Source: Gammaproteobacteria bacterium (lineage in GTDB: Bacteria; Pseudomonadota; Gammaproteobacteria; CAJXQU01). From it: a DNA stretch of 64,000 nucleotides. The notes beneath the pieces were generated by a model that was not told where the DNA came from, did no database searches, and saw only the letters and a list, made by a program, of their open reading frames with translations. Location of the stretch: NCBI GenBank assembly GCA_965238175.1, contig CBDEGZ010000003.1, forward strand, positions 396,357 through 460,356. Reading direction: 5' to 3'. Position numbers and translations under genes: made by a program. This document shows, piece by piece, positions 2,637 through 29,484 of the stretch; position 1 is the first letter of the stretch, and each line of letters starts with the position of its first letter.

Positions 2637-3647
2637 GTGAAAACCGCCCCCAAAAATTGTCTTATAGTCGGCCCTTCCTGGGTTGGCGATATGGTTATGG
2701 CTCAGAGCCTATTTATGATCTTAAAAAAACATAACCCAAACTTAAACATTGATGTCCTCGCACCAAATTGGAGCGAACCTCTTTTAGATAGAATGCCTGA
2801 GGTGCGTGATTCAATTACGATGCCGGTTGGGCACGGAAAATTACAATTGGGCCTTCGCTATAAGATCGGAAAACAGCTACAAAATAATAACTATGACTGG
2901 GCAATCCTTTTACCCAATTCATTAAAATCTGCACTGATCCCATTTTGGGCAAACATACCAAAACGAACGGGGTTTAAAGGCGAAATGCGTTACGGGTTGC
3001 TGAATGATCTTCGTCATCTCGATAAAGCCAAATTGACGATGACCGTGCAACGATTTGTTTCTCTAGCCTTTTCTGATCAAACACACGTTCCTGAAGAATA
3101 TCCACGTCCAAGTTTAAAACTCGATCAAAAAATCGTTAAAGATTCCTTAGAAAAATTTGATCTTAAAACAGAAAAACCTGTTCTCGCTTTATGCCCCGGT
3201 GCGGAATACGGTCCAGCCAAACGCTGGCCCATTGAATACTTTGCAGAAGTTGCTCAAATCAAGTATCAGGAAGGGTGGCAAGTTTGGATATTTGGATCAG
3301 AAAAAGATCAAAAAGTCTCAGAATCGATCTCTGATCAATCGGGAGTGGTATGTATAAACCTTGCTGGCAAAACTACACTTGCGGAAGCGATAGATCTTCT
3401 CTCACAAGCAAGCTATGTTATTACAAATGACTCAGGTCTAATGCATGTTGCCGCGGCACTTGATCGACCGTTGACTGTACTTTATGGCTCTTCCGATCCA
3501 AACTTTACACCGCCTCTGAACGAACAAGCAAAGATAATTTCATTGGGACTCGAATGTAGTCCATGCTTTCAACGAGAATGTCCATTCGAACATTTAAACT
3601 GTTTGCGGGAAATAAGGCCTGAAAAAGTAATTTCTTCGTTCAAATAA
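2637..3647 (+). CDS. waaF: ADP-heptose--LPS heptosyltransferase II
   Basis: The N-terminus CLIVGPSWVGDMVMAQSLF...DVLAPNWSEPLLDRMPEV is near-identical in pattern to enterobacterial and Pseudomonas WaaF. It is a GT9-family protein. Confidence 0.85.
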   Translation: MKTAPKNCLIVGPSWVGDMVMAQSLFMILKKHNPNLNIDVLAPNWSEPLLDRMPEVRDSITMPVGHGKLQLGLRYKIGKQLQNNNYDWAILLPNSLKSALIPFWANIPKRTGFKGEMRYGLLNDLRHLDKAKLTMTVQRFVSLAFSDQTHVPEEYPRPSLKLDQKIVKDSLEKFDLKTEKPVLALCPGAEYGPAKRWPIEYFAEVAQIKYQEGWQVWIFGSEKDQKVSESISDQSGVVCINLAGKTTLAEAIDLLSQASYVITNDSGLMHVAAALDRPLTVLYGSSDPNFTPPLNEQAKIISLGLECSPCFQRECPFEHLNCLREIRPEKVISSFK

Positions 3648-3813
3648 TCGGATCATAAAAACACTAAGTTTCAGGTAGGTAACCTTCATTTCTAGCTTTA
3701 TTTCCCTTTGGTTGAGACATTTCTTATTAACAGAGATTATTTTACAACATTTTGATAATCTAGATGTTATTTATTAATTCTTCAAATTTCATTAAAAATA
3801 CAATATCTCAGCC

Positions 3814-4806
3814 ATGCGAATATTGATCGTTAAAACTTCCTCTTTAGGTGATGTGGTGCATATGCTGCCAGCAATCACCGATGCTGATCGAGTATTTCCA
3901 GATCTCGTTGTAGATTGGATCGTTGAAAAATCTTTTCAAAGTGTTCCAGAATGGAATTCAGCTATTAATAAAATCATTCCCGTGACAATTCGGCGCTGGC
4001 GTAAAAAAGTGTTTTCTTATAGTACTCAATCAGAAATCACCTCGGTAAAGAAAAACATTCAATCGATGAAATATGATGCAGTCATCGATGCTCAGGGACT
4101 GATCAAAAGTTCAATAATCACTCGTTTATGTCGGGGTAGGCGATACGGATATAACTTTCGTAGCGCACGCGAACCTCTCGCTAGTTTGGCTTACGATGAA
4201 CGTTTTTTAGTTTCGAAAGAACTACATGCAATTGAAAGAAACCGACAACTTACTGCACTTTCACTTGGTTATTCATACCATGACTTACCTTTAAGTTATG
4301 GCTTAGAAAATATGATCAGCGAAATTTTTTCCCAATCAAAACATAGCGAGGAGCTTTTCCCAGATAGATATGTTGTTGGCCTGCACGGCACAAGCCGTCC
4401 AGATAAAGAATGGCCAGAAGAAAATTGGGTCCAGCTTTCACAAAAATTAGCTGATCAAAAAATCACTTTACTATTACCCTGGGGTAATCATCGCGAATAT
4501 GAACGTGCAGAAAGGATTGCTGAGAAAGGCAACACCGTCGTTCTACCAAAACTTGATCTAGATAGTCTTGCTGAAATTATTTGCAGATCAAAAGCAGTCG
4601 TTGGAATGGATACTGGATTGATGCATATTGCAGCCGCTCTAGGGAAACCAGGTGTGGCTATTTATCCTGCGACGAAGCCTGAATTAACCGGTGTAATTTC
4701 GGGAGCTGTTCATCAGCCTATTATTAATCTTGAAGGCTTAGTGTCGGCAGACATGGTTATGGAACGTTTAAAATTTTCTAATTGGGCAACAAATAGAAAG
4801 TTATAA
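3814..4806 (+). CDS. waaC: ADP-heptose--LPS heptosyltransferase I
   Basis: MRILIVKTSSLGDVVHMLPAITDA...DWIVEKSFQSVPEWNSAINKIIPVTIRRWRK matches the WaaC N-terminal consensus. Gene order waaF-waaC matches Pseudomonas. Confidence 0.85.
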   Translation: MRILIVKTSSLGDVVHMLPAITDADRVFPDLVVDWIVEKSFQSVPEWNSAINKIIPVTIRRWRKKVFSYSTQSEITSVKKNIQSMKYDAVIDAQGLIKSSIITRLCRGRRYGYNFRSAREPLASLAYDERFLVSKELHAIERNRQLTALSLGYSYHDLPLSYGLENMISEIFSQSKHSEELFPDRYVVGLHGTSRPDKEWPEENWVQLSQKLADQKITLLLPWGNHREYERAERIAEKGNTVVLPKLDLDSLAEIICRSKAVVGMDTGLMHIAAALGKPGVAIYPATKPELTGVISGAVHQPIINLEGLVSADMVMERLKFSNWATNRKL

Positions 4807-5068: not shown

Positions 5069-5284
5069 CTATAGGTCTAAAACATACTCCGTCCCACAAT
5101 ACGGGCACTTCGCTTTACCCGTTTCTTCAATAGGTAAAAACACGCGAGGATGCGAGTTCCATAAAGAAGACTCGGGCATCGGACAATGAAGCGGCAAATC
5201 AGATCTAGCCACTTCTGTTGGCTCATTTTCCAGGGTTTTATTTTGATCTTCAGCAGAATTAGTCATTAGATATATGAAAGCCAT
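5069..5284 (-). CDS. Small zinc-finger protein (CPYCG motif)
   Basis: 71 aa with C-x25-CPYCGTEY, possibly a Zn ribbon. It lies immediately downstream of ilvE on the same strand. The start may be Met7. Confidence 0.45.
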   Translation of the reverse strand: MAFIYLMTNSAEDQNKTLENEPTEVARSDLPLHCPMPESSLWNSHPRVFLPIEETGKAKCPYCGTEYVLDL

Positions 5285-6207
5285 TGTGGATATTCTGATC
5301 GTCGGCCATGGACTTGATCAAAATACATAGTTTGCAGTTTTTCGGTAATCAGGCCACGCGAACCCTCTCCAATCACTCGGCCATCCAATTCCTGGATAGG
5401 CGTAACCTCAGCAGCCGTTCCACAGAAAAAAGCTTCTTCCGCCACATAGACCTCGTCACGCGTGATTCTTTTTTCTTTTACTTCAACACCAATATCCATG
5501 GCAAAGGTCATCAGCGTATCTCGAGTAATACCTTCCAGTGCTGACGTCAGATCTGGCGTATAAATGACACCGTTTCTAACGATAAAAATATTCTCACCAC
5601 TACCTTCGGCAACGTATCCTTCATTATCCAGCAACAGTGCTTCGTCATAACCGCACTCTAATGCTTCTTGTAAGGCCAACATTGAATTCATGTAATTGCC
5701 GTTCGCCTTCGCCTTACACATTGTGATATTAACATGATGCCGCGTGTATGAAGAAGTCCGTACACGGATGCCTTTTTCCAACGCTTCTTGTCCCATATAA
5801 GCACCCCATTCCCATGCCGCAACCATCACATGAGTACTGAGATTATCCGCACGCAAACCCATACCTTCCGAGCCATAAAAACACATAGGACGGAGATAGG
5901 CGGAATCAAGATTGTTTTCTTTCACAACTGAAAGACAAGCATTGTTTATTGTTTCTTTGTCGTAAGGCATATCCATTCTTAAAATATGCGCGGATCGAAA
6001 TAATCGATCGGTATGTTCTTGCAGGCGAAAAATCGCCGTGCCCTTTTCCGCATGGTATGCACGCACACCTTCAAAAACACCTAAGCCATAATGTAAAGTA
6101 TGTGTAAGTACGTGGGTTGTTGCTTCACGCCAGGGAACCATCTCACCGTCTAACCAAATCACGCCATCTCGATCTGACATTGTCATTGCTTTTTGTTTAT
6201 TACTCAT
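5266..6207 (-). CDS. ilvE: Branched-chain amino acid aminotransferase
   Basis: 313 aa with a class IV aminotransferase pattern (GLGVFEGVRAY...EAFFCGTAAEVTPI). Confidence 0.9.
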   Translation of the reverse strand: MSNKQKAMTMSDRDGVIWLDGEMVPWREATTHVLTHTLHYGLGVFEGVRAYHAEKGTAIFRLQEHTDRLFRSAHILRMDMPYDKETINNACLSVVKENNLDSAYLRPMCFYGSEGMGLRADNLSTHVMVAAWEWGAYMGQEALEKGIRVRTSSYTRHHVNITMCKAKANGNYMNSMLALQEALECGYDEALLLDNEGYVAEGSGENIFIVRNGVIYTPDLTSALEGITRDTLMTFAMDIGVEVKEKRITRDEVYVAEEAFFCGTAAEVTPIQELDGRVIGEGSRGLITEKLQTMYFDQVHGRRSEYPQWLSYI

Positions 6208-6210
6208 CTA

Positions 6211-9093
6211 TCAATCTTCTTCTATTAGTTTGTTCCAAATTTTTGTTACGCCTTCTCGATATGCTTTATATTCAGTTTCAGAGACAAGCGCCGGTTTTTC
6301 TTGCAGGGCTAGTTGATGACTGTCTGCGCGATAACTAAAATAAGCGTCGCGCAATAATTCCGTTTCTTCAGTTTTTAGTAATTTCAAATCAGACAGAGTC
6401 TCAAGCAATCTTAAATTGTCTGTGTAAGTTTTTAATTCCTTATGATCCGTCGCCCAACACAACACACTATATTGTACTATAAATTCAATATCGGCCATCC
6501 CTCCGATACCCTGTTTTAAATCAAACATCCCTTTAACCTTTTTTGCCAGATTTTCGCGCATCTTTTCGCGCATCTCTCGAACGTCTTTTTTCAGTTCTTT
6601 TTGATTCCTTTTTCGCGATAAAATCGAACTGCGCACATTATTAAATGCATCCCGGATCACATGACCACCTGAAATTGATCTGGCGCGAACTAATGCCTGA
6701 TGTTCCCAAGTCCATGCTTTCTCTTGTTGATATTCTGCAAAGGCCTCCATACTCGTTACTAAAAATCCAGACATTCCACTGGGTCGCAGACGCGTATCAA
6801 TTTCATAGGTTCTTCCTGCCTGCGTTACTGCAGTCAAAATATGGATCAATCGTTGGCCTAGCCGATTGAAAAAGACATTATTATCGACCTGTTTTTTACC
6901 ATCAGTAAATTGAGCTTCTCCATGACTATCATGAACAAAAACAACATCAAGATCAGATCCATATCCCAATTCAAGCCCTCCTAATTTCCCATAGGCAATG
7001 ATCGCGAAATTCGCCGAAACATTTTTTCCCTTGCTTGTAAAACAAGGCTTACCATAACGTGCGACCATTTCTCCCCAGGCAAGATCTGCTGCAGCAGAAA
7101 GTACTACCTCAGCAATACAAGATAAGTAATTACTTACTTCAGCTAAGGGTGATTTTCCTGTTATATCAGCAGCAGCAATACGCAGTACTTGTGAATGTCT
7201 GAAATGTCTCAAAATATCCATTTGTCTTTCTAAATCATCTTGATGCACATTGAACAATTGATCATTGATAAATGTTACAAGTTCAATTTGTTCAGGTGAT
7301 GAGTATAAGCTTTCACGGTCAATTAACTCATCCAATAAAATAGGTTGATTGGAAATGTAATCTGCAATCCAGGGGCTTACCGCACATAGTTTTATCAATC
7401 TCCCTAACGCATCGGGATGCTCCTTTAGTAAAGATAAATAAACACTACGTTTAACCACCGAGTCAATTAAGTTGAGTACTCGTTGTAGCGCGACAGTTTG
7501 ATCATTATTTGCGACATTAGAGATCCCTTCCAAAACGAGTGGCATAAGCCGATCGAGGCGTTCTCGTGCATCATTGCTTAATTGTGCAAGAGCGTATACT
7601 TCCCGTGTTTGATCAATCATCTGCAGAATTTCTAACGGCTGATCAAAACCCAATTTTACCAATGCTTGTTCTGCATCTTCCTGATCAATTTCATTCATCC
7701 AAACGGCGGTTAAATCTGTTGATACTTTATCTTTTTCTTCGTCTTCACCGGTTTTGAGCAATGAAGCGAATCGAGTTGAAACACGACCACGATGTTTATC
7801 AAGCTCTAGTAAAAACCCCTCCCAATTCTCAAAACCCATTCCAAAAGCAACTCTTGCTCGATCAAGTTCTGATGTAGGCAATGCTTGTGTTTGTTGATCC
7901 GCAATTTCTTGAATGCGATGTTCAGTATTACGTAAAAAGACATAGGCTTCTCGCAGATCTTTTTGTTCTTTTTTATTTAAAATTTCCAGATTTTCTAATA
8001 CCGACAGAACTTCAAGAATTTTTCTGGCTTGTAACTCAGGTTCACGTCCCCCTCGTAGCAACTGAAAAGTTTGTCCGATAAATTCCACCTCCCGGATCCC
8101 TCCTGGGCCTAGCTTCACATCGCTTGTCATCCCTTTACGTAATACTTCACGATCGATCATTTCTTTCATTTTACGAATTGCATCATAAGCACCGTAATCT
8201 AGATAACGTCGAAACACGAAAGGTTGTAGCATCTTCATCAATCCAGCACCGGCGCCTTTATCGCCGGCAGCAATGTTGGCTTTGATCATCGCGTAGCGCT
8301 CCCAGTCACGTGCATGGGAGACATAATATTCTTCCATCGCGTCAAAATTTAAAGCCAACGCACCACTTTCCCCAAATGGCCGGAGGCGCATATCCATGCG
8401 AAAAACAAAACCATCTTCGGTCATCTCATTAAAGACCTTGATCAATTGTTTGCCGAGACGAATAAAAAATTCCTGATTGTCTAAGGATTTTTTCAAGCCC
8501 ATTTTTTGAGCATTTGTTTCACCGGCTTCTGGGAAAGCAAAAATTAGATCAATATCAGATGAAAAATTAAGCTCATGCGCGCCCAATTTTCCCATCGAGA
8601 CAATGACCATTTTTTGTAACTCGCCATCTTCGTTTGCTGGTTGTCCAAAACGTTCGGCTAACCATTGATGCAATAAGGATAATGTTTGATCGAGCATTTC
8701 TTCAGCCAATAAAGACAAATCACTGGTTGTTTCTTCGAGATCTACAAACCCCGCAATATCGCGCCATGCTATGCGCACCATCTCGCGATTACGGAATTGA
8801 CGCATCACACACATCAGATCCTCTTCTTCTTCAATGCCGTTTATTTTTTTTTTAAACAGTTTTGTGTAATCTTTGCGTGTACGTTTTTTTTCCAGATCAG
8901 AGTTGATAATAAGTTGCTTAAATTCTTGTGGATAGCGCAGACAATAATTTGCCACAAATTGACTGCATGACAGAACTTTTTTTGCTACAGGATTATTGAT
9001 CAAGTCTGCCAGATCAGAGTCTAGCTCAGATAATAAACATTTGATCTGTTGGTCTAGTATTACAGGAAGTGTCTCAGAGGATTTTTTAGCCAT
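6211..9093 (-). CDS. glnE: Bifunctional glutamine synthetase adenylyltransferase/adenylyl-removing enzyme
   Basis: 960 aa with two nucleotidyltransferase domains carrying the GxGxxxRxE...DLD motif (GKLGAHELNFSSDIDLIF; GKLGGLELGYGSDLDVVF). Confidence 0.9.
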   Translation of the reverse strand: MAKKSSETLPVILDQQIKCLLSELDSDLADLINNPVAKKVLSCSQFVANYCLRYPQEFKQLIINSDLEKKRTRKDYTKLFKKKINGIEEEEDLMCVMRQFRNREMVRIAWRDIAGFVDLEETTSDLSLLAEEMLDQTLSLLHQWLAERFGQPANEDGELQKMVIVSMGKLGAHELNFSSDIDLIFAFPEAGETNAQKMGLKKSLDNQEFFIRLGKQLIKVFNEMTEDGFVFRMDMRLRPFGESGALALNFDAMEEYYVSHARDWERYAMIKANIAAGDKGAGAGLMKMLQPFVFRRYLDYGAYDAIRKMKEMIDREVLRKGMTSDVKLGPGGIREVEFIGQTFQLLRGGREPELQARKILEVLSVLENLEILNKKEQKDLREAYVFLRNTEHRIQEIADQQTQALPTSELDRARVAFGMGFENWEGFLLELDKHRGRVSTRFASLLKTGEDEEKDKVSTDLTAVWMNEIDQEDAEQALVKLGFDQPLEILQMIDQTREVYALAQLSNDARERLDRLMPLVLEGISNVANNDQTVALQRVLNLIDSVVKRSVYLSLLKEHPDALGRLIKLCAVSPWIADYISNQPILLDELIDRESLYSSPEQIELVTFINDQLFNVHQDDLERQMDILRHFRHSQVLRIAAADITGKSPLAEVSNYLSCIAEVVLSAAADLAWGEMVARYGKPCFTSKGKNVSANFAIIAYGKLGGLELGYGSDLDVVFVHDSHGEAQFTDGKKQVDNNVFFNRLGQRLIHILTAVTQAGRTYEIDTRLRPSGMSGFLVTSMEAFAEYQQEKAWTWEHQALVRARSISGGHVIRDAFNNVRSSILSRKRNQKELKKDVREMREKMRENLAKKVKGMFDLKQGIGGMADIEFIVQYSVLCWATDHKELKTYTDNLRLLETLSDLKLLKTEETELLRDAYFSYRADSHQLALQEKPALVSETEYKAYREGVTKIWNKLIEED

Positions 9094-9160: not shown

Positions 9161-9982
9161 TTATCTCGGGTTATAAAAACCAAAACAAGCTCGGAAGAGC
9201 ACGACTAATAGTGAAAAATTATCCCGCATGCCGTTTATTTTGGTCGGAATTTCTCCCTGAGGATATTGCCTGTTTGTAGGTAGCTCTATGCATAAAAACC
9301 CAAGCTTTGGTGCTCTATATGACAAGTAAGCCAATAGTTCGTAGGTCATAAAAATATCTCGGAAGGGCGCTATTCTTTCATCAAGTAATAATTTACGACT
9401 GTATGCACGAAAACCTTGTGTGGTATCTGTCCAGCGAAATCTGGAAAATAAACTCAACATTGGTGCATGGATATAGCGAATAGCGAAATCACGTGATTTA
9501 GGCGTATTCTTTTGCGCTCCTCCTTCGATATAACGAGATGCTTGTATGAAATCAACTCCCTTTTTTAAAGTGTTAATAAAATCAGAAATAGGATCAGGAT
9601 CATCTTTATCATTTCCATCAATGGTTATGATCCCTTCATATCCTTGCTCTAGTGCAAATGCATAGCCACAACGAAGTTGGGCGCTCAACTTACCTGGCCC
9701 TGTTTTTTGCAATAAACCTTTGACGCCTTTACTTGTAAGCAGAGTAGGTTCCAGCGAACCATCGGTAGACCCCCCATCGATGATGATGATATCTGCAAAC
9801 TGTTCTATTTTTAACACCGACATCTTATCAATAAGAGAAATAATCCTATTACCTTCGTTAATAACTGGGATAACGACACAATAGTCCTGTTTGCGCTGCT
9901 CCCAAAAAAGCACTTCGTATGCCGGAACTTTCCAATTCGTGTGATCTTTAGATATTGATCCTTTATTTGTCGTCAAGTTCAT
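9161..9982 (-). CDS. Family-2 glycosyltransferase (DPM1/GtrB-like, soluble type)
   Basis: 273 aa with VVIPVINEG...IIIDGGSTDGS (DxD-type GT-A motifs). It is the last gene of the operon. Confidence 0.7.
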   Translation of the reverse strand: MNLTTNKGSISKDHTNWKVPAYEVLFWEQRKQDYCVVIPVINEGNRIISLIDKMSVLKIEQFADIIIIDGGSTDGSLEPTLLTSKGVKGLLQKTGPGKLSAQLRCGYAFALEQGYEGIITIDGNDKDDPDPISDFINTLKKGVDFIQASRYIEGGAQKNTPKSRDFAIRYIHAPMLSLFSRFRWTDTTQGFRAYSRKLLLDERIAPFRDIFMTYELLAYLSYRAPKLGFLCIELPTNRQYPQGEIPTKINGMRDNFSLLVVLFRACFGFYNPR

Positions 9983-9988
9983 CTGAAA

Positions 9989-10345
9989 TCACCCCACATG
10001 CGATGCTATCAAAGTAACACCGAGGATCACCAGAATAATCCCTAACGCGATAGTCCAGTGAAAGGGCTCACGTAATACCAACGCTGAAAACAGTGCGATC
10101 ACGGTTATCGTTCCGGAGGTTAATAGTGGGTGTGCTACGTTCAAAGGAAAACGAGATAGTGATGCGGCATATAACAAGAATGCACCTCCGTAGAGAACTA
10201 ACCCTAGCCAGAAAGGCCAGTTTCGAAGTGCGGCCATAGGATCAGCTAAGGAAGGAAAAGTATGGGGTGGCATCATCGCGTACTTAACCATAATACTGGC
10301 CGAAGCATTTGCAGCAATACCTAAAATAAGAATGATCCACTTCAC
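9989..10345 (-). CDS. SMR/EamA-like 4-TM small membrane protein (ArnE/ArnF- or GtrA-like flippase subunit)
   Basis: 118 aa with four predicted TM helices. The N-terminus MKWIILILGIAANASASIMVKYAM resembles ArnE/ArnF. Confidence 0.55.
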   Translation of the reverse strand: MKWIILILGIAANASASIMVKYAMMPPHTFPSLADPMAALRNWPFWLGLVLYGGAFLLYAASLSRFPLNVAHPLLTSGTITVIALFSALVLREPFHWTIALGIILVILGVTLIASHVG

Positions 10346-11178
10346 GATTTTAAACCTGTATTAGTATTTCTATATGACATGATCGCTACTTTGATAGCAC
10401 GTTCAATTGCGACAATATGAGACTCATTTTTTGTTGCTAACATCTCGATGCTGATAATATGGTTCGGTAAAGATTTCAGTAAGAATTCTGCATTTGTAGC
10501 ATGATCACAACCACCATCACCTAGAGGCAATAGATCTGGTTCGCTGGCATGTATATGCCCAATCAGAGAAGAATAGTCTTTCAGTATATCCTCGGCGTTT
10601 TCACCATTGATGGTAAGTGCTCCAGTATCGTACTGCATTTTGATCGAGGGGTGATCAATTTGACGAACCATATAAGCCGTTTCTGCGCCGGTTGTCATAA
10701 AGTTTGCACCGTAACACTCAGGGTTGGGTTCTAGACAAAGGATAACTCCATATGAAAGTGCAATATCACCGAGCTTACGGAAGAAATTACTAGCCATTTC
10801 ATTAGCTTCATTCTCACCTAACGATCCTTTATCTCTATTTTTAGGGGAACCAAAAACCAGTCGAGTGGCATTAAGTCCAGCACCGATCCGACATATTGAT
10901 TCTAGATGCTGCAACATTGCTTTCTGGCTTTTATCAGCCCCAAATACATTTAATCCTGATGTACCGAAAAGTAATGCCTGCATACCGGTAATTTCGATGC
11001 CCCGATCATCCCACCACTGGCGAACTTGGGCTATCTCTTGATCAGTTGCATGTGTCGGATCAGAAAAATATTTCCCCGGAGCAATATCGATCGCATCAAT
11101 ATTGTATTGATGAAGTAACTTTACGATAGAGGCATCTTCCGTCGTATCCCAGGCAATATTCGATATCGCCAACCTCAT
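10342..11178 (-). CDS. Sugar-phosphate isomerase/epimerase (xylose-isomerase-like TIM barrel)
   Basis: 278 aa with MRLAISNIAWDT... and conserved His/Glu/Asp positions typical of the AP-endonuclease-2/XI TIM-barrel family. It overlaps its neighbours by 4 nt on each side. Confidence 0.6.
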   Translation of the reverse strand: MRLAISNIAWDTTEDASIVKLLHQYNIDAIDIAPGKYFSDPTHATDQEIAQVRQWWDDRGIEITGMQALLFGTSGLNVFGADKSQKAMLQHLESICRIGAGLNATRLVFGSPKNRDKGSLGENEANEMASNFFRKLGDIALSYGVILCLEPNPECYGANFMTTGAETAYMVRQIDHPSIKMQYDTGALTINGENAEDILKDYSSLIGHIHASEPDLLPLGDGGCDHATNAEFLLKSLPNHIISIEMLATKNESHIVAIERAIKVAIMSYRNTNTGLKS

Positions 11179-11969
11179 TTTATTTCGCCCATTTTCGATT
11201 TAGCCGTAACAGGTTCAGATTGTGCGTAAGCACGAATAGCCTGAATAGTGTCAGATCTGGAATATTGATAGTGACCTGAAACCCCGAAAAGATTTGCATA
11301 TTGTGTGCGGAAATCATACACGGCTGGACTTCTGGACAAAACATGATCGAATGACTTACCAAACCCCGACATTGATGCATCTCTTACACTAATTGGCTCC
11401 GCTGTCAGGTGGATAAGCTTTAGCCCAGCGACAAGGCAGGTTTTGATGTCAAACCATAAATTAACCATAGGATAAAACTGGAAAACGCCACGACTATCAA
11501 TGGCATCAAGATTGTTATTATTCAAAAAATCATAGATAACATTTTTGAGCAAACCCGGACCGACAAGACCAGGTAGACGAACAATCAAACATTCAGGGAA
11601 GTGACTTTCAACAAACTTTTCCAACCTTCTCCTGTTCAGACCATAAGCTTGCAGGCCATCTTCATTTACCACAACAGTTTCATCTACTTCTAATACATCT
11701 TTATACACATCCACCGTGCTGATCAAAATAAACGTTTTACACCGGACAGTTTTCAGACGGGCGATTAAGCTTTCAATATTTTCAGAATCTTCTTTAGGAT
11801 TTTTATTCGCAATCCATTTTTTTGCAGACGCACCCGCACAAACAATAGTGTCGAATGTTTGCCCTTCAATCTCACGAATATTCGTTGAGCGATAGAGTGA
11901 TGTAAACGTTGTTTGTTTTAGTAGTGTGCTACCGACAAACCCGGTGTGCCCAATTAATGCTTTTTTCAC
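11175..11969 (-). CDS. NAD(P)-dependent epimerase/dehydratase (short SDR)
   Basis: 264 aa with an N-terminal Rossmann GHTGFVGSTLL motif. It is stop/start-overlapped with the TIM-barrel gene. Confidence 0.6.
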   Translation of the reverse strand: MKKALIGHTGFVGSTLLKQTTFTSLYRSTNIREIEGQTFDTIVCAGASAKKWIANKNPKEDSENIESLIARLKTVRCKTFILISTVDVYKDVLEVDETVVVNEDGLQAYGLNRRRLEKFVESHFPECLIVRLPGLVGPGLLKNVIYDFLNNNNLDAIDSRGVFQFYPMVNLWFDIKTCLVAGLKLIHLTAEPISVRDASMSGFGKSFDHVLSRSPAVYDFRTQYANLFGVSGHYQYSRSDTIQAIRAYAQSEPVTAKSKMGEIK

Positions 11970-12011
11970 AAAACTTCCTCAATCACACTACAATTGAAAG
12001 TGTTTTTAATC

Positions 12012-13136
12012 TTATACAAAGCTTTCAGCATCGAGTCTCTCAAATACATCATAAATATTATCAATTTTACCACCGAGGATAGAATAACAGTTTGGTAGTT
12101 CCGGATGTTTTTCATACAAAATTGGCCTACCATCATCCACCTCATTTTTCACCAAAACAGTTTTGATCTCAAACAACGACTCGACATAGTTTGCTTCTGA
12201 AATAGCCAAAAGATATCTTGCAGTATCACGTAACATACGATCTACTCGGCTTAAGCGCTCGTAATGGTTCATTTTTGTATAAGGATTATTATCAGACTCA
12301 TCACTCCAATCTAGATGCGGTGTATACCGTACATGTGAGAGCGTGTGTAACCCGCGTGAAGGAAATGGCATCATTGAAAAAAATGGTCCATCCATTACAG
12401 TAATTCCTAAACCTTCAAGGGAAGGGGGCATCTTTAAAAGCGCCATCTCTGTGATCTCATGTTTAAGCTGTGTAGCAGTCCCAGGATAATCTCCCGACAA
12501 CTGGTTTAACCCACTGTATGTACAATTAAAAACATAATCGCCAAATATAGATTCTTCTTTCTTGTGTTTAGTTTCAACGACGACATTGAGTCCTTTAGAT
12601 CCTTTTAAAATATTGGTTACTCGGGTGTCAAAACAAACTTTTACGCCATACTTTTTCAGTTCTTTTTGCACACTCTCAGCAAGCTTTTTCGAATCGAAAA
12701 CATATTCTTTAACTAAATAAGCACTTTCGATCAGACGCGGTTCAAATAATGAAAAAACATTTGAGCCAGCAGTCTCTATTTCCGCACCAATTTCATCACA
12801 AAACCGCTCAAATTGAGTAGCGGTAACCTTGGAATTCTTACGTGCAATAGCGTATATATTCTCGAAATCTTGTCTGATTACCTCAGGCCAATCTTGTATA
12901 AATCGCGAAAGATTTATTCTACTTCGACTCGCTGTCGTTAAACTGCGTGGATAGTGATAGCCATTATGTACCCGAGCCTGATTATTATACGAAGCTCGCG
13001 TCATCAAAGCAGATTCCTGCTCAACTACCAGTATATTTTTAAGCCCCCGATACTTGGCAAGATAAATAGCAATAAGCGAACCGTAAACCCCTCCCCCAAT
13101 AATCACCGCTTGCTGGGTTAAATCATGATCAAGCAT
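12012..13136 (-). CDS. FAD-dependent oxidoreductase (DAO/GR2-like)
   Basis: 374 aa with an N-terminal dinucleotide-binding motif VIIGGGVYGSLIAIYLAK. Confidence 0.65.
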   Translation of the reverse strand: MLDHDLTQQAVIIGGGVYGSLIAIYLAKYRGLKNILVVEQESALMTRASYNNQARVHNGYHYPRSLTTASRSRINLSRFIQDWPEVIRQDFENIYAIARKNSKVTATQFERFCDEIGAEIETAGSNVFSLFEPRLIESAYLVKEYVFDSKKLAESVQKELKKYGVKVCFDTRVTNILKGSKGLNVVVETKHKKEESIFGDYVFNCTYSGLNQLSGDYPGTATQLKHEITEMALLKMPPSLEGLGITVMDGPFFSMMPFPSRGLHTLSHVRYTPHLDWSDESDNNPYTKMNHYERLSRVDRMLRDTARYLLAISEANYVESLFEIKTVLVKNEVDDGRPILYEKHPELPNCYSILGGKIDNIYDVFERLDAESFV

Positions 13137-14161
13137 TAGGGCTCAGGTTTTACGTAACTTTCGGTATTCCCAGAATTGTTTAACACCCCTTCTTCGATAT
13201 TCAGTTTCTCATGACGGGTAATAAGAGCACTGGAGAACTCCTGTGCAACATGATATTTGGGACCTTCGTTGGTAAGGCTTGCCATATGAAGAATATATTC
13301 ACCGAGAATAAGGAGTACAATAGATATCAGGAAAAACATCCCTGATTGCTGAAGAGATAAACTAACCCATCCCGCTGCCACATCATCTTTTAGCAAAGCA
13401 ATAGCGAGAATATAGACTGAATAAATCAAGTTTGCCGCTGCTCCAAATAAAGACAGCGTTGTGACAAGACGCATTGGCGTATGAGTCGTTGAAACTAATA
13501 AACGGATCCCCTGATCAAGACTCGTTCTTAAATGTTTTTTCCTGGCAAACGTAGGAACACTGCTGTATTTCAGATTAACGCGTGAAAACCCACCTGTTGC
13601 AGGGAGGTGTCGATATGTTATTGCTGGCTGTGGATGTTGCAAAATGAAGTTGACAACGTTCTTACTCAGCACTCGATAGGGTGGAGCTTCTTCAGCTAAA
13701 CGAATATCGTTAAACCATTTATAAAGCCGATTGAAAATAGAATTTGCATATCGATAAGAACGACTCGAAGCAACTTTTTGATCATTACTTGCAAAAACTA
13801 CATCGATACCATTTGTCGCCTTCTCCAGCATTACTGGTAGAAACTCAAGACCCTCCGTAAAGGGATCTATTGCAACAACAAAATCTCCCAGTGAGTTTTC
13901 AAGCCCTAATGAAGACGCAGTATCTTTATCGACCTCTTTGGTCAATGCATAGACTTGCAGATTAGGAAGACCATTTTCACCTGCCAGACTTTTCAGAATT
14001 GAAATACTATCGTCTTCAGATGCGTTATCAACAATAATCAATTCATAATCGCTAACCAGATCAGCAAGAAAACCGGTTGTCTCTTTAAGTAAGTTTTCGA
14101 CAAGTTCAGATTGATTTCTTAATACAACAATGACTGAAAGAAACACTGGGAAAAAGGGCAC
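13136..14161 (-). CDS. Family-2 glycosyltransferase with C-terminal TM helices (polyprenyl-phosphate sugar synthase-like, ArnC/DPM1 type)
   Basis: 341 aa with GT-A motifs (IIVDNASEDDS) followed by two C-terminal TM segments (LSLFGAAANLIYSVYILAI...MFFLISIVLLILGEYIL). This architecture is typical of lipid-carrier glycosyltransferases. Confidence 0.7.
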   Translation of the reverse strand: MPFFPVFLSVIVVLRNQSELVENLLKETTGFLADLVSDYELIIVDNASEDDSISILKSLAGENGLPNLQVYALTKEVDKDTASSLGLENSLGDFVVAIDPFTEGLEFLPVMLEKATNGIDVVFASNDQKVASSRSYRYANSIFNRLYKWFNDIRLAEEAPPYRVLSKNVVNFILQHPQPAITYRHLPATGGFSRVNLKYSSVPTFARKKHLRTSLDQGIRLLVSTTHTPMRLVTTLSLFGAAANLIYSVYILAIALLKDDVAAGWVSLSLQQSGMFFLISIVLLILGEYILHMASLTNEGPKYHVAQEFSSALITRHEKLNIEEGVLNNSGNTESYVKPEP

Positions 14162-14315
14162 TTAAATACTCTCACGTCTCGCACCAAATACTGAGGTACA
14201 AGCAGAAGTTATGAATGAAGAGTTAGTATAATTTGAACACCCAAATAAGTCACCTGTAAACTGTTTAGACTCTGTGTTTTAGAACTTTTTGTCTAAAACT
14301 TATAAAACCATCCAA

Positions 14316-14352
14316 AATAAAAAGCCCCGCTGTCAGAAACAAACGGGGCCTT
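14316..14352 (-). terminator. Rho-independent terminator of groESL
   Basis: On the minus strand: GGCCCCG-loop-CGGGGC followed by TTTTTATTTT. Confidence 0.6.
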
Positions 14353-16392: not shown

Positions 16393-16480
16393 CTTTTAAG
16401 GTCTCCTAAAAACAGATAAAAGTTAAACAAACAGATTAAATTAGTAGCACTCTATCGAGGTGGTTGCTAATTATAGGTTT

Positions 16481-16510
16481 GCATATGGGGCTGTCAAGAT
16501 AAACTTCAAG
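16481..16510 (-). promoter_or_regulatory. Sigma-32 heat-shock promoter of groESL
   Basis: Minus strand reads CTTGAA-N14-CCCCATAT, matching the sigma-32 consensus CTTGAA / CCCCATnT. It lies about 90 nt upstream of the groES start. Confidence 0.6.
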
Positions 16511-16542
16511 TACAATTGGTCAATTAAAATAGAATTCCTTCA

Positions 16543-17022
16543 AAACCAGAGCTTTCAGGTGGATAAAATAAGATCACTTAGCCGTACCTTCATCAAAAGA
16601 AGTGAAAAACTTGCGCCTATCAATCTGCCACTTTCGCCACGCGAAAAAAGAGCCAAAGCAAAGAAAGCCTTGAAACGTCTGAGAACCATCGGCCACATCC
16701 TGCTCCGTGAACTCAGACACAAGCTCCCCAGTCACTGCCTTTCGAGTGCCATCAAAAAACCTTTTATGCTATGAGCGAGTACTGGCACAACAGCCCAAAG
16801 ATAAAAACAAAACCTACTCACTACATGACAACCATACTTTACCTGACGTATTCATGCATATCGAAACGTCACGGGCAAAGCCGTCCACAACCGTTTGCGT
16901 TCGAGACTATCGCAGCCATCATTGGCTATCTGAAATCAGATTTTCGGATATCAAGAAACTTCCTCAAAGGTATATCAGGCAATGAAATTAATCTGCTAAT
17001 GACAGCACTGTCTGGAACTTGA
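16543..17022 (+). pseudogene. IS5-family transposase remnant (frameshifted, no intact ORF)
   Basis: Three overlapping frame fragments are present. The last ends ...DFRISRNFLKGISGNEINLLMTALS, resembling the IS5/IS903-type C-terminus (…[27 protein letters not shown]). No intact DDE ORF and no clear inverted repeats were found. Confidence 0.4.
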
Positions 17023-17327: not shown

Positions 17328-17876
17328 CCAAGAAAGGAAAACAATAAATGTCATTAGAATATATCAATGTTTGTTTTAGAACAGCCGGACTTTAGATTGT
17401 GTTTCAATATTTTTACATATTGAAATTGAACCCGTTTTTTCAATCGGTGAAAAGCTTAATAAAATTAACGAAGAAGCCTATATGAGTGTCAAAGTCCAAA
17501 AACTGGACGCCCTTAGTAAATCGTAAAATTGAGAGTGTAGAAGTGATCTGGCATTGGGTGAGGCCGGTATATTCGAGAAGAAAACGTACTACCCTCAAAA
17601 CGTCTTACTAAAGTTTTCGGGTGAGGCCTCAGTCGTAATATCTACAATGGAAATAACTGATACTTCTCATTGGGGTATGGCTGACAATATTGTGGTATTT
17701 TTCAATGAACAAGTGGCTAGCAAATATAAGGCTTTAAATGCATAACAAAGCTGTCATAGGGACATTTTTTGCTTTGCTGTGTTGGGGGGTGGCTACGCCA
17801 CTTTACCTCAAAACCCCACTACACAAAAATGCCCTATACTGCAGCGTTATGTGATTACGAAAGTGAGTTCCAAGTA

Positions 17877-18317
17877 ATGAAAGGTGTAATATTCGTTGGT
17901 CTGCAAGCCAGTGGTAAGTCCTATTTTTATCTCAGGAAGCTTTATAAAACTCACCTACGCCTTAATATGGATATGCTAAAAACACGGCATAGGGAAAATA
18001 TTCTATTTAATGCATGCTTGGAATCGAAACAACCTGTTGTAATTGATAATACTAACTCTACGAAAAATGAGCGTGAAAAATACATTAGCGGTTTTAAGAA
18101 TCACCGTTTTGAGGTTATAGGGTTTTACTTTGCTTCCAGCTTGTCTGAATGCTTAGAAAGGAATGCATCCAGAAAGGGTAAAGAGAGAATACCAGACGTA
18201 GGTCTGAAAGGAACATACAGTAAGCTGGAATTGCCTACTTATTCTGAAGGTTTTGACAAGTTGTATTATGTATCCATGAAAAATGATGAATTTCTCATAG
18301 AGGAGTGGCAAAGATGA
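17877..18317 (+). CDS. Polynucleotide 5'-hydroxyl kinase (T4 Pnk kinase-domain-like P-loop protein)
   Basis: It has a Walker A motif GLQASGKS. VVIDNTN...ERNASRKGKERIPDVGLKGTY parallels T4 Pnk VIISDTNLN...[20 protein letters not shown]. The listed six-frame ORF begins at 17769, but the P-loop position favours Met at 17877. It overlaps the downstream TLP gene by 13 nt. Confidence 0.7.
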   Translation: MKGVIFVGLQASGKSYFYLRKLYKTHLRLNMDMLKTRHRENILFNACLESKQPVVIDNTNSTKNEREKYISGFKNHRFEVIGFYFASSLSECLERNASRKGKERIPDVGLKGTYSKLELPTYSEGFDKLYYVSMKNDEFLIEEWQR

Positions 18318-19078
18318 AGTTCAAGGAATTAGATAAGAAATTACGAGTTTTTGAAACCGCACATGATCATTGTGTTTTACCTGGCGTGTACATTGTAGCT
18401 AGAATTGACGGAAGATGTTTTACAACTTTAACCAAAGATAAACATCCGTTTGAAGCCCCCTATGACCCTAAGTTCAGAGATATGATGATTGAAACTGTGA
18501 AACATTTAATGCAATGTGGTTTCAAAGTTCTTTATGGATATACTCAAAGCGATGAAATATCACTGCTCTTAGATTTAAATGAGAATACATTCGAAAGAAA
18601 GGAACGAAAGATCAATTCAGTGCTAGCGGGAGAGGCAAGTGCGAAGTTTAGTTTGCTTCTTGGCGATATCGGAGCTTTTGATTGCCGTATTTGTCAACTT
18701 CCGAATAGGCAACTTGTAATCGACTACTTTCGCTGGAGAAACGAAGATGCCCATAGAAACGCCTTAAATTCCCACTGTTATTGGAGCCTTAGGAAGGAGG
18801 GTGTATCTCCAAAAGAGTCAGCTGCTACCTTTACAAAAATGTCTGTGGCGCAGAAAAATGAGTTCCTTTTTCAAAAAGGCACTAATTTTAATGATTTGCC
18901 AAGTTGGCAAAAAAGAGGACTGGGGGTGTATTGGGAGTCTTACGAAAAAGACGGCCTTAACCCAAGTACGAGGGAAAAGGTTAAAACTAATCGTAATCTT
19001 CTTAAGACCAATCTAGATCTCCCTATGAAAGAAAAATATAGCGATTTTATTCGTAACTTCGTGTCTGAACTCGTATAA
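18305..19078 (+). CDS. Thg1-like protein (TLP), tRNA 3'-5' nucleotidyltransferase
   Basis: MAKMKFKELDKK...YIVARIDGRCF...YGYTQSDEISLLL aligns with human and yeast Thg1 (MAKSKFEYV...VVVRLDGRNF...AYGQSDEYSFVF). The metal-binding Asp of RIDG and the SDE carboxylates are present. Confidence 0.85.
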   Translation: MAKMKFKELDKKLRVFETAHDHCVLPGVYIVARIDGRCFTTLTKDKHPFEAPYDPKFRDMMIETVKHLMQCGFKVLYGYTQSDEISLLLDLNENTFERKERKINSVLAGEASAKFSLLLGDIGAFDCRICQLPNRQLVIDYFRWRNEDAHRNALNSHCYWSLRKEGVSPKESAATFTKMSVAQKNEFLFQKGTNFNDLPSWQKRGLGVYWESYEKDGLNPSTREKVKTNRNLLKTNLDLPMKEKYSDFIRNFVSELV

Positions 19079-29262: not shown

Positions 29263-29401
29263 AAATATATAATTATATATTTATAGATAGATTTCAAGAA
29301 TATTATCTATCATCATATTTCTACTAAAACACATCATAAAAAAAATATTAATTTATATATTTCAATAACTTAAATATAAATTTCCAAGCTTGCAAAAAAG
29401 C

Positions 29402-29417
29402 TGGCAGGCCCATTGCA
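29402..29417 (+). promoter_or_regulatory. Sigma-54 (-24/-12) promoter for rtcB
   Basis: TGGCAG-gccca-TTGCA matches TGGCAC-N5-TTGCW. It lies about 70 nt upstream of the rtcB start, in the AT-rich rtcR/rtcB divergent region. Confidence 0.65.
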
Positions 29418-29484
29418 ATAATCTCTATCGAAAACAATTGAAACGAATACTAAATTACTAAACAAGAATAGAAGGAAGATCAAA

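Follow-up and report, generated by a model that had tools for sequence, protein, structure and literature searches.

What would a bacterium make with six closely packed genes that combine two glycosyltransferases with a flavoprotein, a reductase-like protein, a sugar-isomerase-like barrel and a small membrane protein? The question is raised by positions 9161-14161 of the window analysed here, a 64 kb stretch of contig CBDEGZ010000003.1 from a Gammaproteobacteria bacterium, within which all coordinates are counted. An initial annotation had proposed that these genes oxidise and re-reduce a sugar on its lipid carrier, as in the mycobacterial DprE1/DprE2 pathway, to decorate lipopolysaccharide (LPS) or another envelope acceptor. 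We find that the six genes form a genuine operon and belong to a cassette that is very widespread and mobile, though unnamed. We give an even chance to the reading that the operon supplies the donor for a Gtr-like 'three-component' periplasmic glycosylation system, as its donor-synthesis half, and that a sugar-remodelling module is built into it. Its parts, numbered head to tail, are as follows (aa, amino acids; TM, transmembrane; GT2, family 2 glycosyltransferase; FAD, flavin adenine dinucleotide; SDR, short-chain dehydrogenase/reductase).

14162-14350, minus strand: operon upstream region, with the groEL intrinsic terminator and then a promoter-like match
13136-14161, minus strand: gene 1, GT2A, a GtrB/ArnC-like GT2 with two C-terminal TM segments (341 aa; Pfam Glycos_transf_2)
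12012-13136, minus strand: gene 2, FAD/DAO protein (374 aa; Pfam DAO, 5.6e-19)
11175-11969, minus strand: gene 3, SDR-like protein (264 aa; weak Pfam Epimerase match)
10342-11178, minus strand: gene 4, xylose-isomerase-like TIM barrel (278 aa; Pfam AP_endonuc_2, 3.6e-22)
9989-10345, minus strand: gene 5, SMR/DMT-like protein with four TM segments (118 aa; Pfam TMEM234 and EamA, both marginal)
9161-9982, minus strand: gene 6, GT2B, a soluble DPM1-like GT2 (273 aa; Pfam Glycos_transf_2)

Open reading frame (ORF) calls and a reading of the junctions bore out the six co-directional, overlapping genes of the initial annotation, whose coordinates were exact. The GT2A and FAD genes meet in TAATG, with base 13136 common to both, and the SDR and TIM genes overlap in ATGA (11175-11178), as had been described; the TIM/SMR overlap at 10342-10345, also called ATGA at first, is GTGA, because the start codon of the SMR gene is GTG. 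Gaps of 42 nt, with a GAGGAAG ribosome-binding site ahead of the SDR GTG start, and of 6 nt separate FAD from SDR and SMR from GT2B, respectively. The operon is flanked by groES-groEL upstream and glnE-ilvE downstream. A GC-rich hairpin and T-run (about 14350-14313) end groEL, so the cluster has its own 5' region, where a promoter-like GTGACT-17-TATACT lies at 14253-14225; this is a consensus match only, in a region whose match count is not above shuffle expectation. Domain assignment with Pfam and NCBIfam bore out all six domain calls and did not move the FAD and SDR proteins to an unrelated pathway, and none of the six proteins reached a curated NCBIfam equivalog cut-off. In unchanged order, and with about 60-70% identity between the proteins, the genes recur in Aeromonas, Pseudomonas, Legionella, Paraburkholderia, Massilia and others, which places the operon far beyond chance.

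To compare neighbourhoods, we mapped the six proteins by tblastn and HMMs onto loci from genomes, metagenomes, plasmids and viral contigs, reading gene content, conservation, active-site residues, fusions and genomic contexts directly from them. A five-gene core (SDR, TIM, FAD, GT2A and GT2B) was present in 22 of 22 complete non-redundant loci, which cover five phylum- or class-level groups (Alpha-, Beta- and Gammaproteobacteria, Bdellovibrio-like bacteria and Saccharibacteria). The hosts include Aeromonas, Pseudomonas, Legionella, Psychrobacter, Paraburkholderia, Massilia, Sideroxydans, Methylococcaceae, Azospirillum, Cereibacter and Sphingomonas, as well as a metagenome-assembled genome (MAG) of Pseudobdellovibrionaceae and several Saccharibacteria. 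Gene order differs by lineage, and the GT2A-FAD and SDR-TIM pairs are always adjacent. The cassette is not rare, just unnamed: relatives of the FAD protein number thousands in the databases, with the top 120 all 65-69% identical and named only generically, and an exhaustive search with its profile retrieved 649 clusters (50% identity) at E ≤ 1e-30 among 1.84 billion representatives. Relatives of the SDR-like protein, most with no Pfam domain, are named hypothetical, 'NAD(P)-dependent oxidoreductase', 'dTDP-4-dehydrorhamnose reductase' or 'pyridine nucleotide transhydrogenase'. With all genes generically or wrongly named in this way, genome annotation currently misses the cassette. A literature search of open-access papers and preprints found no description of the gene set, although prior work is possible, and the cassette is apparently unstudied.

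The genomic contexts of the cassette point to surface glycans. ATP-binding cassette (ABC)-transporter O-polysaccharide loci, having a Wzt with a C-terminal carbohydrate-binding domain (Wzt_C), rml genes and many glycosyltransferases, enclose it in Sideroxydans and in three metagenomic contigs. The cassette comes after rmlBDAC in Pseudomonas lactucae, lies among gmd, GT4, GT9 and ABC-transporter genes in Azospirillum, and adjoins polysaccharide genes in Sphingomonas. On the 10.8 kb Psychrobacter plasmid pA22P4 it accounts for most of the cargo, and in Aeromonas media an integrase adjoins it. Two prophage-like IMG/VR contigs carry the complete cassette between tail genes (tape-measure and a phrog_52 tail protein) and CI/Ogr-like lysogeny regulators (a CI-like repressor and another transcriptional regulator), which is the classic place of lysogenic-conversion cargo, like the gtrABC serotype-conversion genes. 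Envelope decoration, as first envisaged, is thus well in keeping with these O-polysaccharide loci, plasmids and prophages, but the usual context is side chains of O-antigen or other polysaccharides and not lipid A. An anti-phage defence system was also considered and rejected, with no PADLOC match for any of the six proteins.

The FAD protein has the DAO-like fold assigned to it at the outset and is a deep-branching member of that family, remotely similar to GlpD, GlpO and LhgO. Its best NCBIfam model, type 2 glycerol-3-phosphate oxidase, scored 38.6 bits against a cut-off of 460, and L-2-hydroxyglutarate oxidase was also far under its cut-off; GlpO (4x9m) was the PDB sequence match, and E. 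coli GlpD and GlpO were the top matches in a fold search with a low-confidence model. Membership of GlpD/GlpO itself was rejected, hhalign against E. coli GlpD giving just 31% probability over 79 columns. These nearest relatives oxidise a secondary alcohol, which in glycerol-3-phosphate is adjacent to the phosphate ester, as the C2 hydroxyl is in any glycosyl phosphate. We propose that the FAD protein is an oxidase that turns a sugar hydroxyl into a ketone. Variants of the protein occur elsewhere: a metagenomic homologue of 781 aa (P0294) has a GFO/IDH/MocA sugar-dehydrogenase-type domain at the N-terminus of a cassette-type FAD protein, and on two viral contigs of 180-190 kb (L032:11127-12074 and L034) a 36%-identical FAD homologue is followed not by SDR-TIM but by an aldo/keto reductase-like ORF, assigned from its N-terminal sequence only, which may be another oxidase-reductase variant.

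The putative keto-reductase of the pathway would be the SDR-like protein, an atypical, extended-SDR-like NAD(P) enzyme judging by its motifs. It matched only Epimerase and NAD_binding_10 in Pfam, both weakly, and nothing in NCBIfam. The GxxGxxG motif, S84/T85 and Y109 are invariant, as is R113, which stands where Lys is expected; Y109 aligns with the catalytic Tyr of UDP-GlcA 4-epimerase (6zl6), mutated as Y149F in PDB 6zlj. The fold neighbours of a low-confidence model were nucleotide-sugar epimerases and reductases (UXS, GalE and RmlD), than which the protein is about 40-70 residues shorter.

The TIM protein had been labelled an isomerase, a description that understated an integral third step of the pathway. 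In PDB it is closest to the D-psicose and D-tagatose 3-epimerases (E about 1e-13 to 1e-14), followed by the 3-keto-D-glucoside 4-epimerase YcjR (6wn6; E 1.7e-7). The invariant E150, D184, H210 and E245 align with E150, D183, H209 and E244 of D-psicose 3-epimerase 3vnk, a Glu/Asp/His/Glu tetrad that we take, from the D-psicose and D-tagatose epimerase structures, to be the metal-binding and catalytic residues. The protein entered no curated equivalog among D-psicose 3-epimerase, IolO and YcjR (IolO 49 and PsicseEpim 32 bits, against cut-offs of 300) and constitutes a separate subfamily. We propose that it is a metal-dependent epimerase acting beside the keto group. Since the ketose-3-epimerase tetrad is kept, the simplest reading of the trio is a sequence in which a hydroxyl is oxidised, the neighbouring carbon epimerised and the ketone reduced.

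In some genomes the TIM protein is fused to the SDR-like protein, and once also to the FAD protein. Fusions of SDR and TIM of about 500 aa, beside a distant FAD homologue, were found on IMG/VR contigs (L035:11027-12520, L036:8485-9990, L037:2326-3912, L039:11036-12559 and L042:1231-2700), and a further IMG/VR contig encodes an SDR-TIM-FAD triple fusion of 783 aa (L041:7038-9389); three of these six contigs are labelled as giant-virus MAGs. From these fusions it follows that FAD, SDR and TIM are one functional unit, and they suggest that large viruses also use the three-enzyme sugar module.

The initial annotation had taken the membrane-anchored GT2A for the synthase of a polyprenyl-phosphate sugar. 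Its ArnC-type architecture with two TM helices stands: GT2A matches the GtrB structure 5eke along its full length including the TM region (profile E 3e-40, residues 6-307), and ArnC at 5e-25 to 3e-28, and like both it has a GT-A domain, a juxtamembrane region and two C-terminal hydrophobic segments. The catalytic role probably does not, GT2B being the likelier synthase. In GtrB, D94-x-D96 is the metal/UDP site, D157 the catalytic acid, and R122 and R200, universally conserved in lipid-phosphate glycosyltransferases, are ligands of the acceptor phosphate; mutation of any of these residues abolishes activity (PMC4728340). We aligned the GT2A and GT2B families (nine and 10 sequences, respectively), each with E. 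coli ArnC and GtrB. GT2A retains the D94 equivalent, but in nine of nine members the residue in the D96 column is F, L, M, A, E, T or S, and the Gln after the DXD motif is deleted; the R122 column is N, A or S, and the R200 column is T, K, A, S or D, with loss of the ER..G.SK motif. At the GtrB-type D157 position, where the alignment is ambiguous, we read P, R, Q, H, K, G or Y, with an E/D at the ArnC-type position in proteobacterial members and not in those of Saccharibacteria or the Psychrobacter plasmid. The membrane part is among the best-conserved regions of the protein. These substitutions suggest that GT2A is probably a pseudo-glycosyltransferase or membrane partner.

The best PDB match of GT2B was dolichol-phosphate mannose synthase (DPMS; 5mlz, 2e-11), followed by ArnC (1e-7) and GtrB (2e-5), and it scored far under the cut-offs of NCBIfam AglJ and PpgS. 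Equivalents of D94 and R122, and the Asp of the ArnC/DPMS-type TDTTxGFR motif, are invariant. In all 10 members D96 is replaced by Asn and the following Gln by Lys, giving a D-x-N...K donor site, and the R200 column is Pro, with an invariant R238 a few residues upstream in an ambiguous part of the alignment. GT2B is thus a probable polyprenyl-phosphate glycosyltransferase with an unusual donor site. Because GT2B keeps most of the key residues and GT2A lacks the second DXD Asp and both arginines, we assign catalysis to the former and a membrane-partner or scaffold role to the latter. Gene linkage and one fusion suggest that the two are partners: on plasmid pA22P4, GT2A and GT2B are one uninterrupted ORF of 592 codons (L018:5410-7188). 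In the gene table of this plasmid only the GT2B part is present, from 6403 and with Ile rather than Met as first codon, and the upstream half is unannotated.

The 118-aa protein had been likened to ArnE, ArnF and GtrA. As sequence membership this fails: the Pfam matches exceeded their cut-offs marginally (TMEM234, 30.8 against 30.1 bits; EamA, 28.3 against 28.2), ArnF scored 24 bits (cut-off 99) and ArnE 17 (cut-off 92), and GtrA gave no Pfam match. As functional analogy it holds. A protein annotated as GtrA family occupies the place of the SMR gene in Cereibacter and Sphingomonas, and in Saccharibacteria the cassette is bordered by clear members of the GtrA family (E 1e-18 to 1e-20); this exchange for GtrA is good evidence for a flippase role, and we propose the SMR-like protein as the flippase of the lipid-linked sugar.

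A candidate for the last step was found outside the window. At least one polytopic membrane protein of about 420-1090 aa, with 6-15 predicted TM segments, lies beside or inside the cassette in 19 of 19 other surveyed loci, and both prophage-like contigs encode one. Such partners are very diverse, as are the serotype-specific transferases of Gtr systems. Among the first 10 scanned with Pfam, one matched GtrII (4e-10) and one, weakly, ALG3; four more gave no match. Their largest family, which extends from Saccharibacteria to Proteobacteria and is fused to GT2B in two genomes, has an invariant Asp directly after TM1 ('YPGFMSxDS ... DWHPP'). Polytopic proteins at L005:7321-8781, L007:13961-16036 and L008:13740-15566 share a C-terminal domain of about 80-100 aa that ends in '...G(Y/F)PHK(V/I)EV'; two are large and cassette-adjacent, and the third is weakly similar to an acyltransferase-3 protein (PF01757) of another locus. 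This domain may be a common periplasmic glycan-binding module.

Put together, these assignments outline a pathway. Soluble GT2B, probably in complex with the degenerate GT2A, would charge undecaprenyl phosphate with a hexose taken from a nucleotide sugar. Neighbouring genes hint at UDP-Glc and GDP-Man as donor candidates and give a mixed signal, with GalU adjacent in two loci and mannose-1-phosphate guanylyltransferase (ManC) in two others. The GlpD-like FAD enzyme would turn one ring hydroxyl, probably at C2 or C3, into a ketone, the TIM enzyme would invert the neighbouring carbon through an enediolate, and the SDR-like enzyme would reduce the ketone with NAD(P)H, the net outcome being a rare epimer formed irreversibly on the carrier. 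The SMR-like protein would then flip the product to the periplasm, where a variable transferase, polytopic and GT-C-like, for which the window has no gene, would add the sugar to O-antigen or another surface glycan. We infer the order of these steps, the lipid-linked substrate, the sugar, the oxidised position, the partnership of GT2A and GT2B, and the acceptor. A lipid-linked substrate is favoured in the cassette clade because the trio is strictly linked to two homologues of polyprenyl-phosphate glycosyltransferases and to a flippase, and because the FAD gene is adjacent to, and translationally coupled with, GT2A, with DprE1/E2 as a precedent. Remodelling on the carrier has precedents in DprE1/DprE2 and in ORF13 of Citrobacter youngae O2 (PMC11127046).

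Several observations weigh against this pathway. On giant-virus-like and jumbo-phage-like contigs, distant FAD and SDR-TIM homologues occur beside ordinary GT2 genes and without GT2A, GT2B or a flippase, so the trio is not in itself bound to a lipid carrier and can act on a different glycosyl substrate. The donor site of GT2B is non-canonical (D-x-N, Lys for Gln), and its donor may therefore be unusual or its activity different; moreover, the alignments allowed no confident assignment of the D157 equivalent in GT2A or the R200 equivalent in GT2B. AlphaFold models of the SDR-like and FAD proteins (pLDDT 63 and 67) give coarse fold neighbours only. A recognisable flippase, SMR or GtrA, was absent from four surveyed loci. 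Only one of the 10 polytopic partners first scanned, and none of the four later ones, had a recognised GT-C-type Pfam match, and the largest family had no match in Pfam or, as a profile, in PDB. Finally, the last transferase is missing from the window, so activity in this organism is putative.

The alternative that survives best, a serious one though we think it somewhat unlikely, is that the trio remodels a soluble glycosyl phosphate, either a nucleotide sugar or a sugar-1-phosphate, and that GT2B then loads the rare sugar on undecaprenyl phosphate, for the same end use. The viral SDR-TIM and SDR-TIM-FAD fusions beside ordinary GT2 genes would fit such a substrate, as would the structural neighbours of the SDR-like protein, all of them nucleotide-sugar enzymes, the fusion of one FAD family member to a GFO/IDH/MocA sugar dehydrogenase domain, and the invariant D-x-N...K motif of GT2B, which suggests a non-standard donor. 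However, nucleotide-sugar epimerisation is normally carried out by single SDR or cupin enzymes, and to our knowledge the only established two-enzyme epimerisation by an FAD oxidase and an NAD(P)H reductase is that of DprE1/E2, on a lipid-linked substrate. The FAD gene of the cassette clade is also always beside the gene for membrane-anchored GT2A, often with translational coupling, and the 40-70 residues that the SDR-like protein lacks could be the nucleotide-binding region. A pathway of carrier-sugar oxidation and reduction analogous to DprE1/DprE2, as first proposed, remains the best explanation, although its enzymes are not homologous to that pair and the substrate, for which we favour a lipid-linked sugar, may instead be nucleotide-linked.

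The position of the window copy raises a second alternative. We found no ArnT-like or polytopic transferase gene in the 64 kb, in agreement with the initial annotation: tblastn of the window with 14 polytopic partners from other loci gave no match, and its proteins with at least six predicted TM segments are a CtaA/COX15-type haem A synthase-like protein and two transporter permeases (read from N-terminal sequences only). This is the only checked locus with no adjacent polytopic protein, and the copy encodes just the donor-synthesis part of the system. The cassette is inserted between the glnE/ilvE/heptosyltransferase block and groESL, away from any O-antigen locus. The window also holds gyrB and a dnaA-like gene, the latter judged from its N-terminal sequence only, and therefore lies near the replication origin. 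GyrB places the window in a gammaproteobacterial lineage. Its best match, from a MAG, is 91% identical (named genera, about 70%), whereas the closest database homologue of the FAD protein is just 69% identical; the cassette thus seems to be missing from sequenced close relatives, in keeping with horizontal acquisition. The operon could accordingly be a horizontally acquired orphan with no cognate transferase, inactive or merely tying up undecaprenyl phosphate, as the missing neighbour, the gap between FAD and GyrB identities and the insertion point would allow. We regard this as improbable, since the six ORFs are intact and retain every family-invariant residue and the translational coupling, the GC content of the cluster is the same as that of its flanks, two GT9 LPS-core heptosyltransferase genes lie 4-5 kb away, and our view is limited to 64 kb of a 3.3-Mb genome, so that a transferase may sit elsewhere in it.

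Still less probable, with only a slim chance in our estimation, is that both GT2 proteins are active, producing two lipid-linked donors or one lipid-linked disaccharide, with GT2A using a mechanism that dispenses with the canonical residues. Strong purifying selection acts on GT2A, whose proteobacterial sequences are about 60-68% identical, GT-A domain included, and proteobacterial members have an acidic residue 5-6 positions ahead of the YR motif, at the ArnC-type position. Nevertheless, no GT2A has the second DXD Asp, R122 or R200, all essential in GtrB (PMC4728340), the ER..G.SK motif has been lost, and in the Cereibacter homologue the GT-A domain is still more degenerate while the membrane part is conserved.

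Comparison with known systems bears on the donor-synthesis reading as well. As observed initially, the operon matches none of the arn, gtr and decaprenylphosphoryl-arabinose (DPA) operons, and we rejected membership of each, the defining enzymes being absent or under curated cut-offs. Likeness is greatest in logic. The gtrABC systems of Shigella, Salmonella and E. coli prophages consist of the undecaprenyl phosphate-glucose synthase GtrB, the flippase GtrA and a serotype-specific GT-C transferase. The cassette parallels them in its GtrB homologue, in a synthase candidate of the DPM1/GtrB type, in a small membrane protein as candidate flippase, whose place is taken by true GtrA in some lineages, and, outside the window, in variable polytopic partners, one of them matching GtrII; it is also carried by prophages, integrase islands and plasmids and occurs in O-antigen loci. 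Unlike gtrABC, it always adds three cytoplasmic enzymes (FAD, TIM and SDR), its GtrB-like GT2A is devoid of the essential residues, and the synthase candidate is a separate soluble GT2 (D-x-N...K). In terms of the three components, the window has synthase and flippase candidates, the latter SMR/DMT-like and not GtrA, and no polytopic transferase gene, whereas the other checked loci have a polytopic protein, in one case with the GtrII match.

The mycobacterial DPA pathway (DprE1, DprE2, the Rv3789 flippase and GT-C arabinosyltransferases) proceeds by flavin oxidation, nicotinamide reduction, flipping and GT-C transfer, as we propose for the cassette (PMC11127046). The proteins differ. The cassette FAD protein is DAO/GlpD-like and matched only DAO and Pyr_redox-type models, with no match to the VAO-type FAD_binding_4 and ALO models of the DprE1 class; the reductase is extended-SDR-like, with no match to the classical adh_short SDR model, to which DprE2 belongs. 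The carrier sugar would come from a GT2 instead of a UbiA-type phosphoribosyltransferase, and the cassette's extra TIM-barrel epimerase means that a second stereocentre would be changed.

The pentofuranose systems of C. youngae O1/O2 also perform periplasmic side-chain glycosylation in ABC-transporter O-polysaccharide loci (Kelly et al. 2024, PMC11127046). Their ORF13, an auxiliary cytoplasmic SDR epimerase, is thought to act on the undecaprenyl phosphate-linked sugar before export, and the authors were aware of no further epimerase in side-chain systems of O-polysaccharides (PMC11127046). These systems differ in their enzymes: the polyprenyl phosphoribose synthase depends on phosphoribosyl pyrophosphate (PRPP), the flippase is of the MATE type, the transferase belongs to GT136, and there is only one epimerase, which is GalE-like (PMC11127046). 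They share none of the five cassette core proteins. According to a commentary, PRPP-type systems in Bacillus have FAD oxidoreductases and NAD(P) epimerases as neighbours, in an architecture that differs from the cassette. By analogy, the cassette would work like gtrABC plus a remodelling step, and be conceptually closest to the DPA pathway and the C. youngae O2 system.

Further systems resemble the cassette in part. The arn (pmrHFIJKLM) operon shares with it an ArnC-like GT2 with two C-terminal TM segments, SMR-type proteins such as ArnE/ArnF and, if our reading holds, modification of the sugar after attachment to undecaprenyl phosphate (by the ArnD deformylase in arn); no homologues of ArnA, ArnB, ArnD or ArnT are present in the cassette, the usual context of which is O-polysaccharide, not lipid A. 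In eukaryotic DPM1-DPM2-DPM3, a soluble DPM1-type GT2 with no TM segments works with separate membrane partners, as GT2B might with GT2A, but DPM2 and DPM3 are tiny and not glycosyltransferases, in contrast to GT2A, a degenerate GtrB paralogue of full length. The six-gene ebo cluster of eustigmatophytes and bacteria, which we take to comprise a UbiA prenyltransferase, a sugar-phosphate cyclase, TatD and others, does not match the cassette in gene set and was set aside.

The E. coli ycjQRS genes (glucoside 3-dehydrogenase, YcjR and a second dehydrogenase) carry out the same three-step glycoside chemistry with a xylose-isomerase-like TIM barrel, but that pathway is catabolic, soluble and reversible, uses two NAD-dependent dehydrogenases of other families and has no flavoprotein or membrane components. 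The simplest reading, by analogy, is that the cassette's chemistry is ycjQRS-like and made one-way by a flavoprotein, as in DprE1/DprE2. A function unrelated to the envelope, in which the GT2 proteins make a soluble glycoside and a small glycoside or compatible solute is degraded or synthesised in the cytoplasm through a keto-sugar, is highly implausible: it could draw on the oxidise-epimerise-reduce precedent of the ycjQRS guloside/glucoside pathway and on a very weak match of GT2B to glucosyl-3-phosphoglycerate synthase, but no sugar transporter, kinase or glycoside hydrolase/phosphorylase accompanies the cassette, whose companions are a GtrB-type membrane protein, an SMR/GtrA protein, polytopic proteins, O-polysaccharide genes and prophage conversion positions.

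Returning to the donor-synthesis reading, we tentatively put forward a more specific version of it. GT2A may be a dedicated pseudo-glycosyltransferase that has kept the membrane and juxtamembrane lipid-phosphate channel of GtrB and lost catalysis, and that brings GT2B and the flavin oxidase together as the scaffold of a membrane metabolon. This complex might convert undecaprenyl-phosphate hexose irreversibly into a rare hexose, through a keto intermediate and two stereocentre inversions and with no nucleotide-activated precursor, and temperate phages and plasmids would spread it as a new class of serotype conversion.

If the donor-synthesis reading holds, the cassette would represent a widespread and so far unnamed route to rare-sugar decoration of surface polysaccharides in Proteobacteria, Bdellovibrio-like bacteria and Saccharibacteria, in which sugars are built directly on the lipid carrier and nucleotide-sugar pathways are bypassed. 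Because the cassette moves on plasmids and temperate phages like gtrABC, it would also be a new source of variation in O-antigen (serotype) and phage receptors. It would enlarge the small set of enzymes reported on polyprenyl-phosphate sugars, to which the validated drug target DprE1 belongs, give glycoengineering three more enzyme families to work with, and provide a natural case of a pseudo-glycosyltransferase partner.

Other features of the window were recorded in passing. At 2637-4806 and 5266-9093, the two GT9 heptosyltransferase genes stand beside ilvE and glnE, an arrangement (glnE-ilvE-waaF-waaC) that Pseudomonas has too. Several short overlapping ORFs occupy 16460-17022, upstream of groES. 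The region 17769-19078 holds an AAA_33 kinase-like gene that runs into the start of a bacterial Thg1-like gene (tRNA-His guanylyltransferase family, with Pfam matches to Thg1, 4e-31, and Thg1C), and the two resemble an RNA-repair pair. About 10 kb from the Thg1-like gene there is a second RNA-repair locus, at 27676-30738, with divergent rtcR (sigma-54 activator) and rtcB (RNA ligase), and a transposase gene with HTH_29 and rve integrase-core domains lies at 33290-34324.

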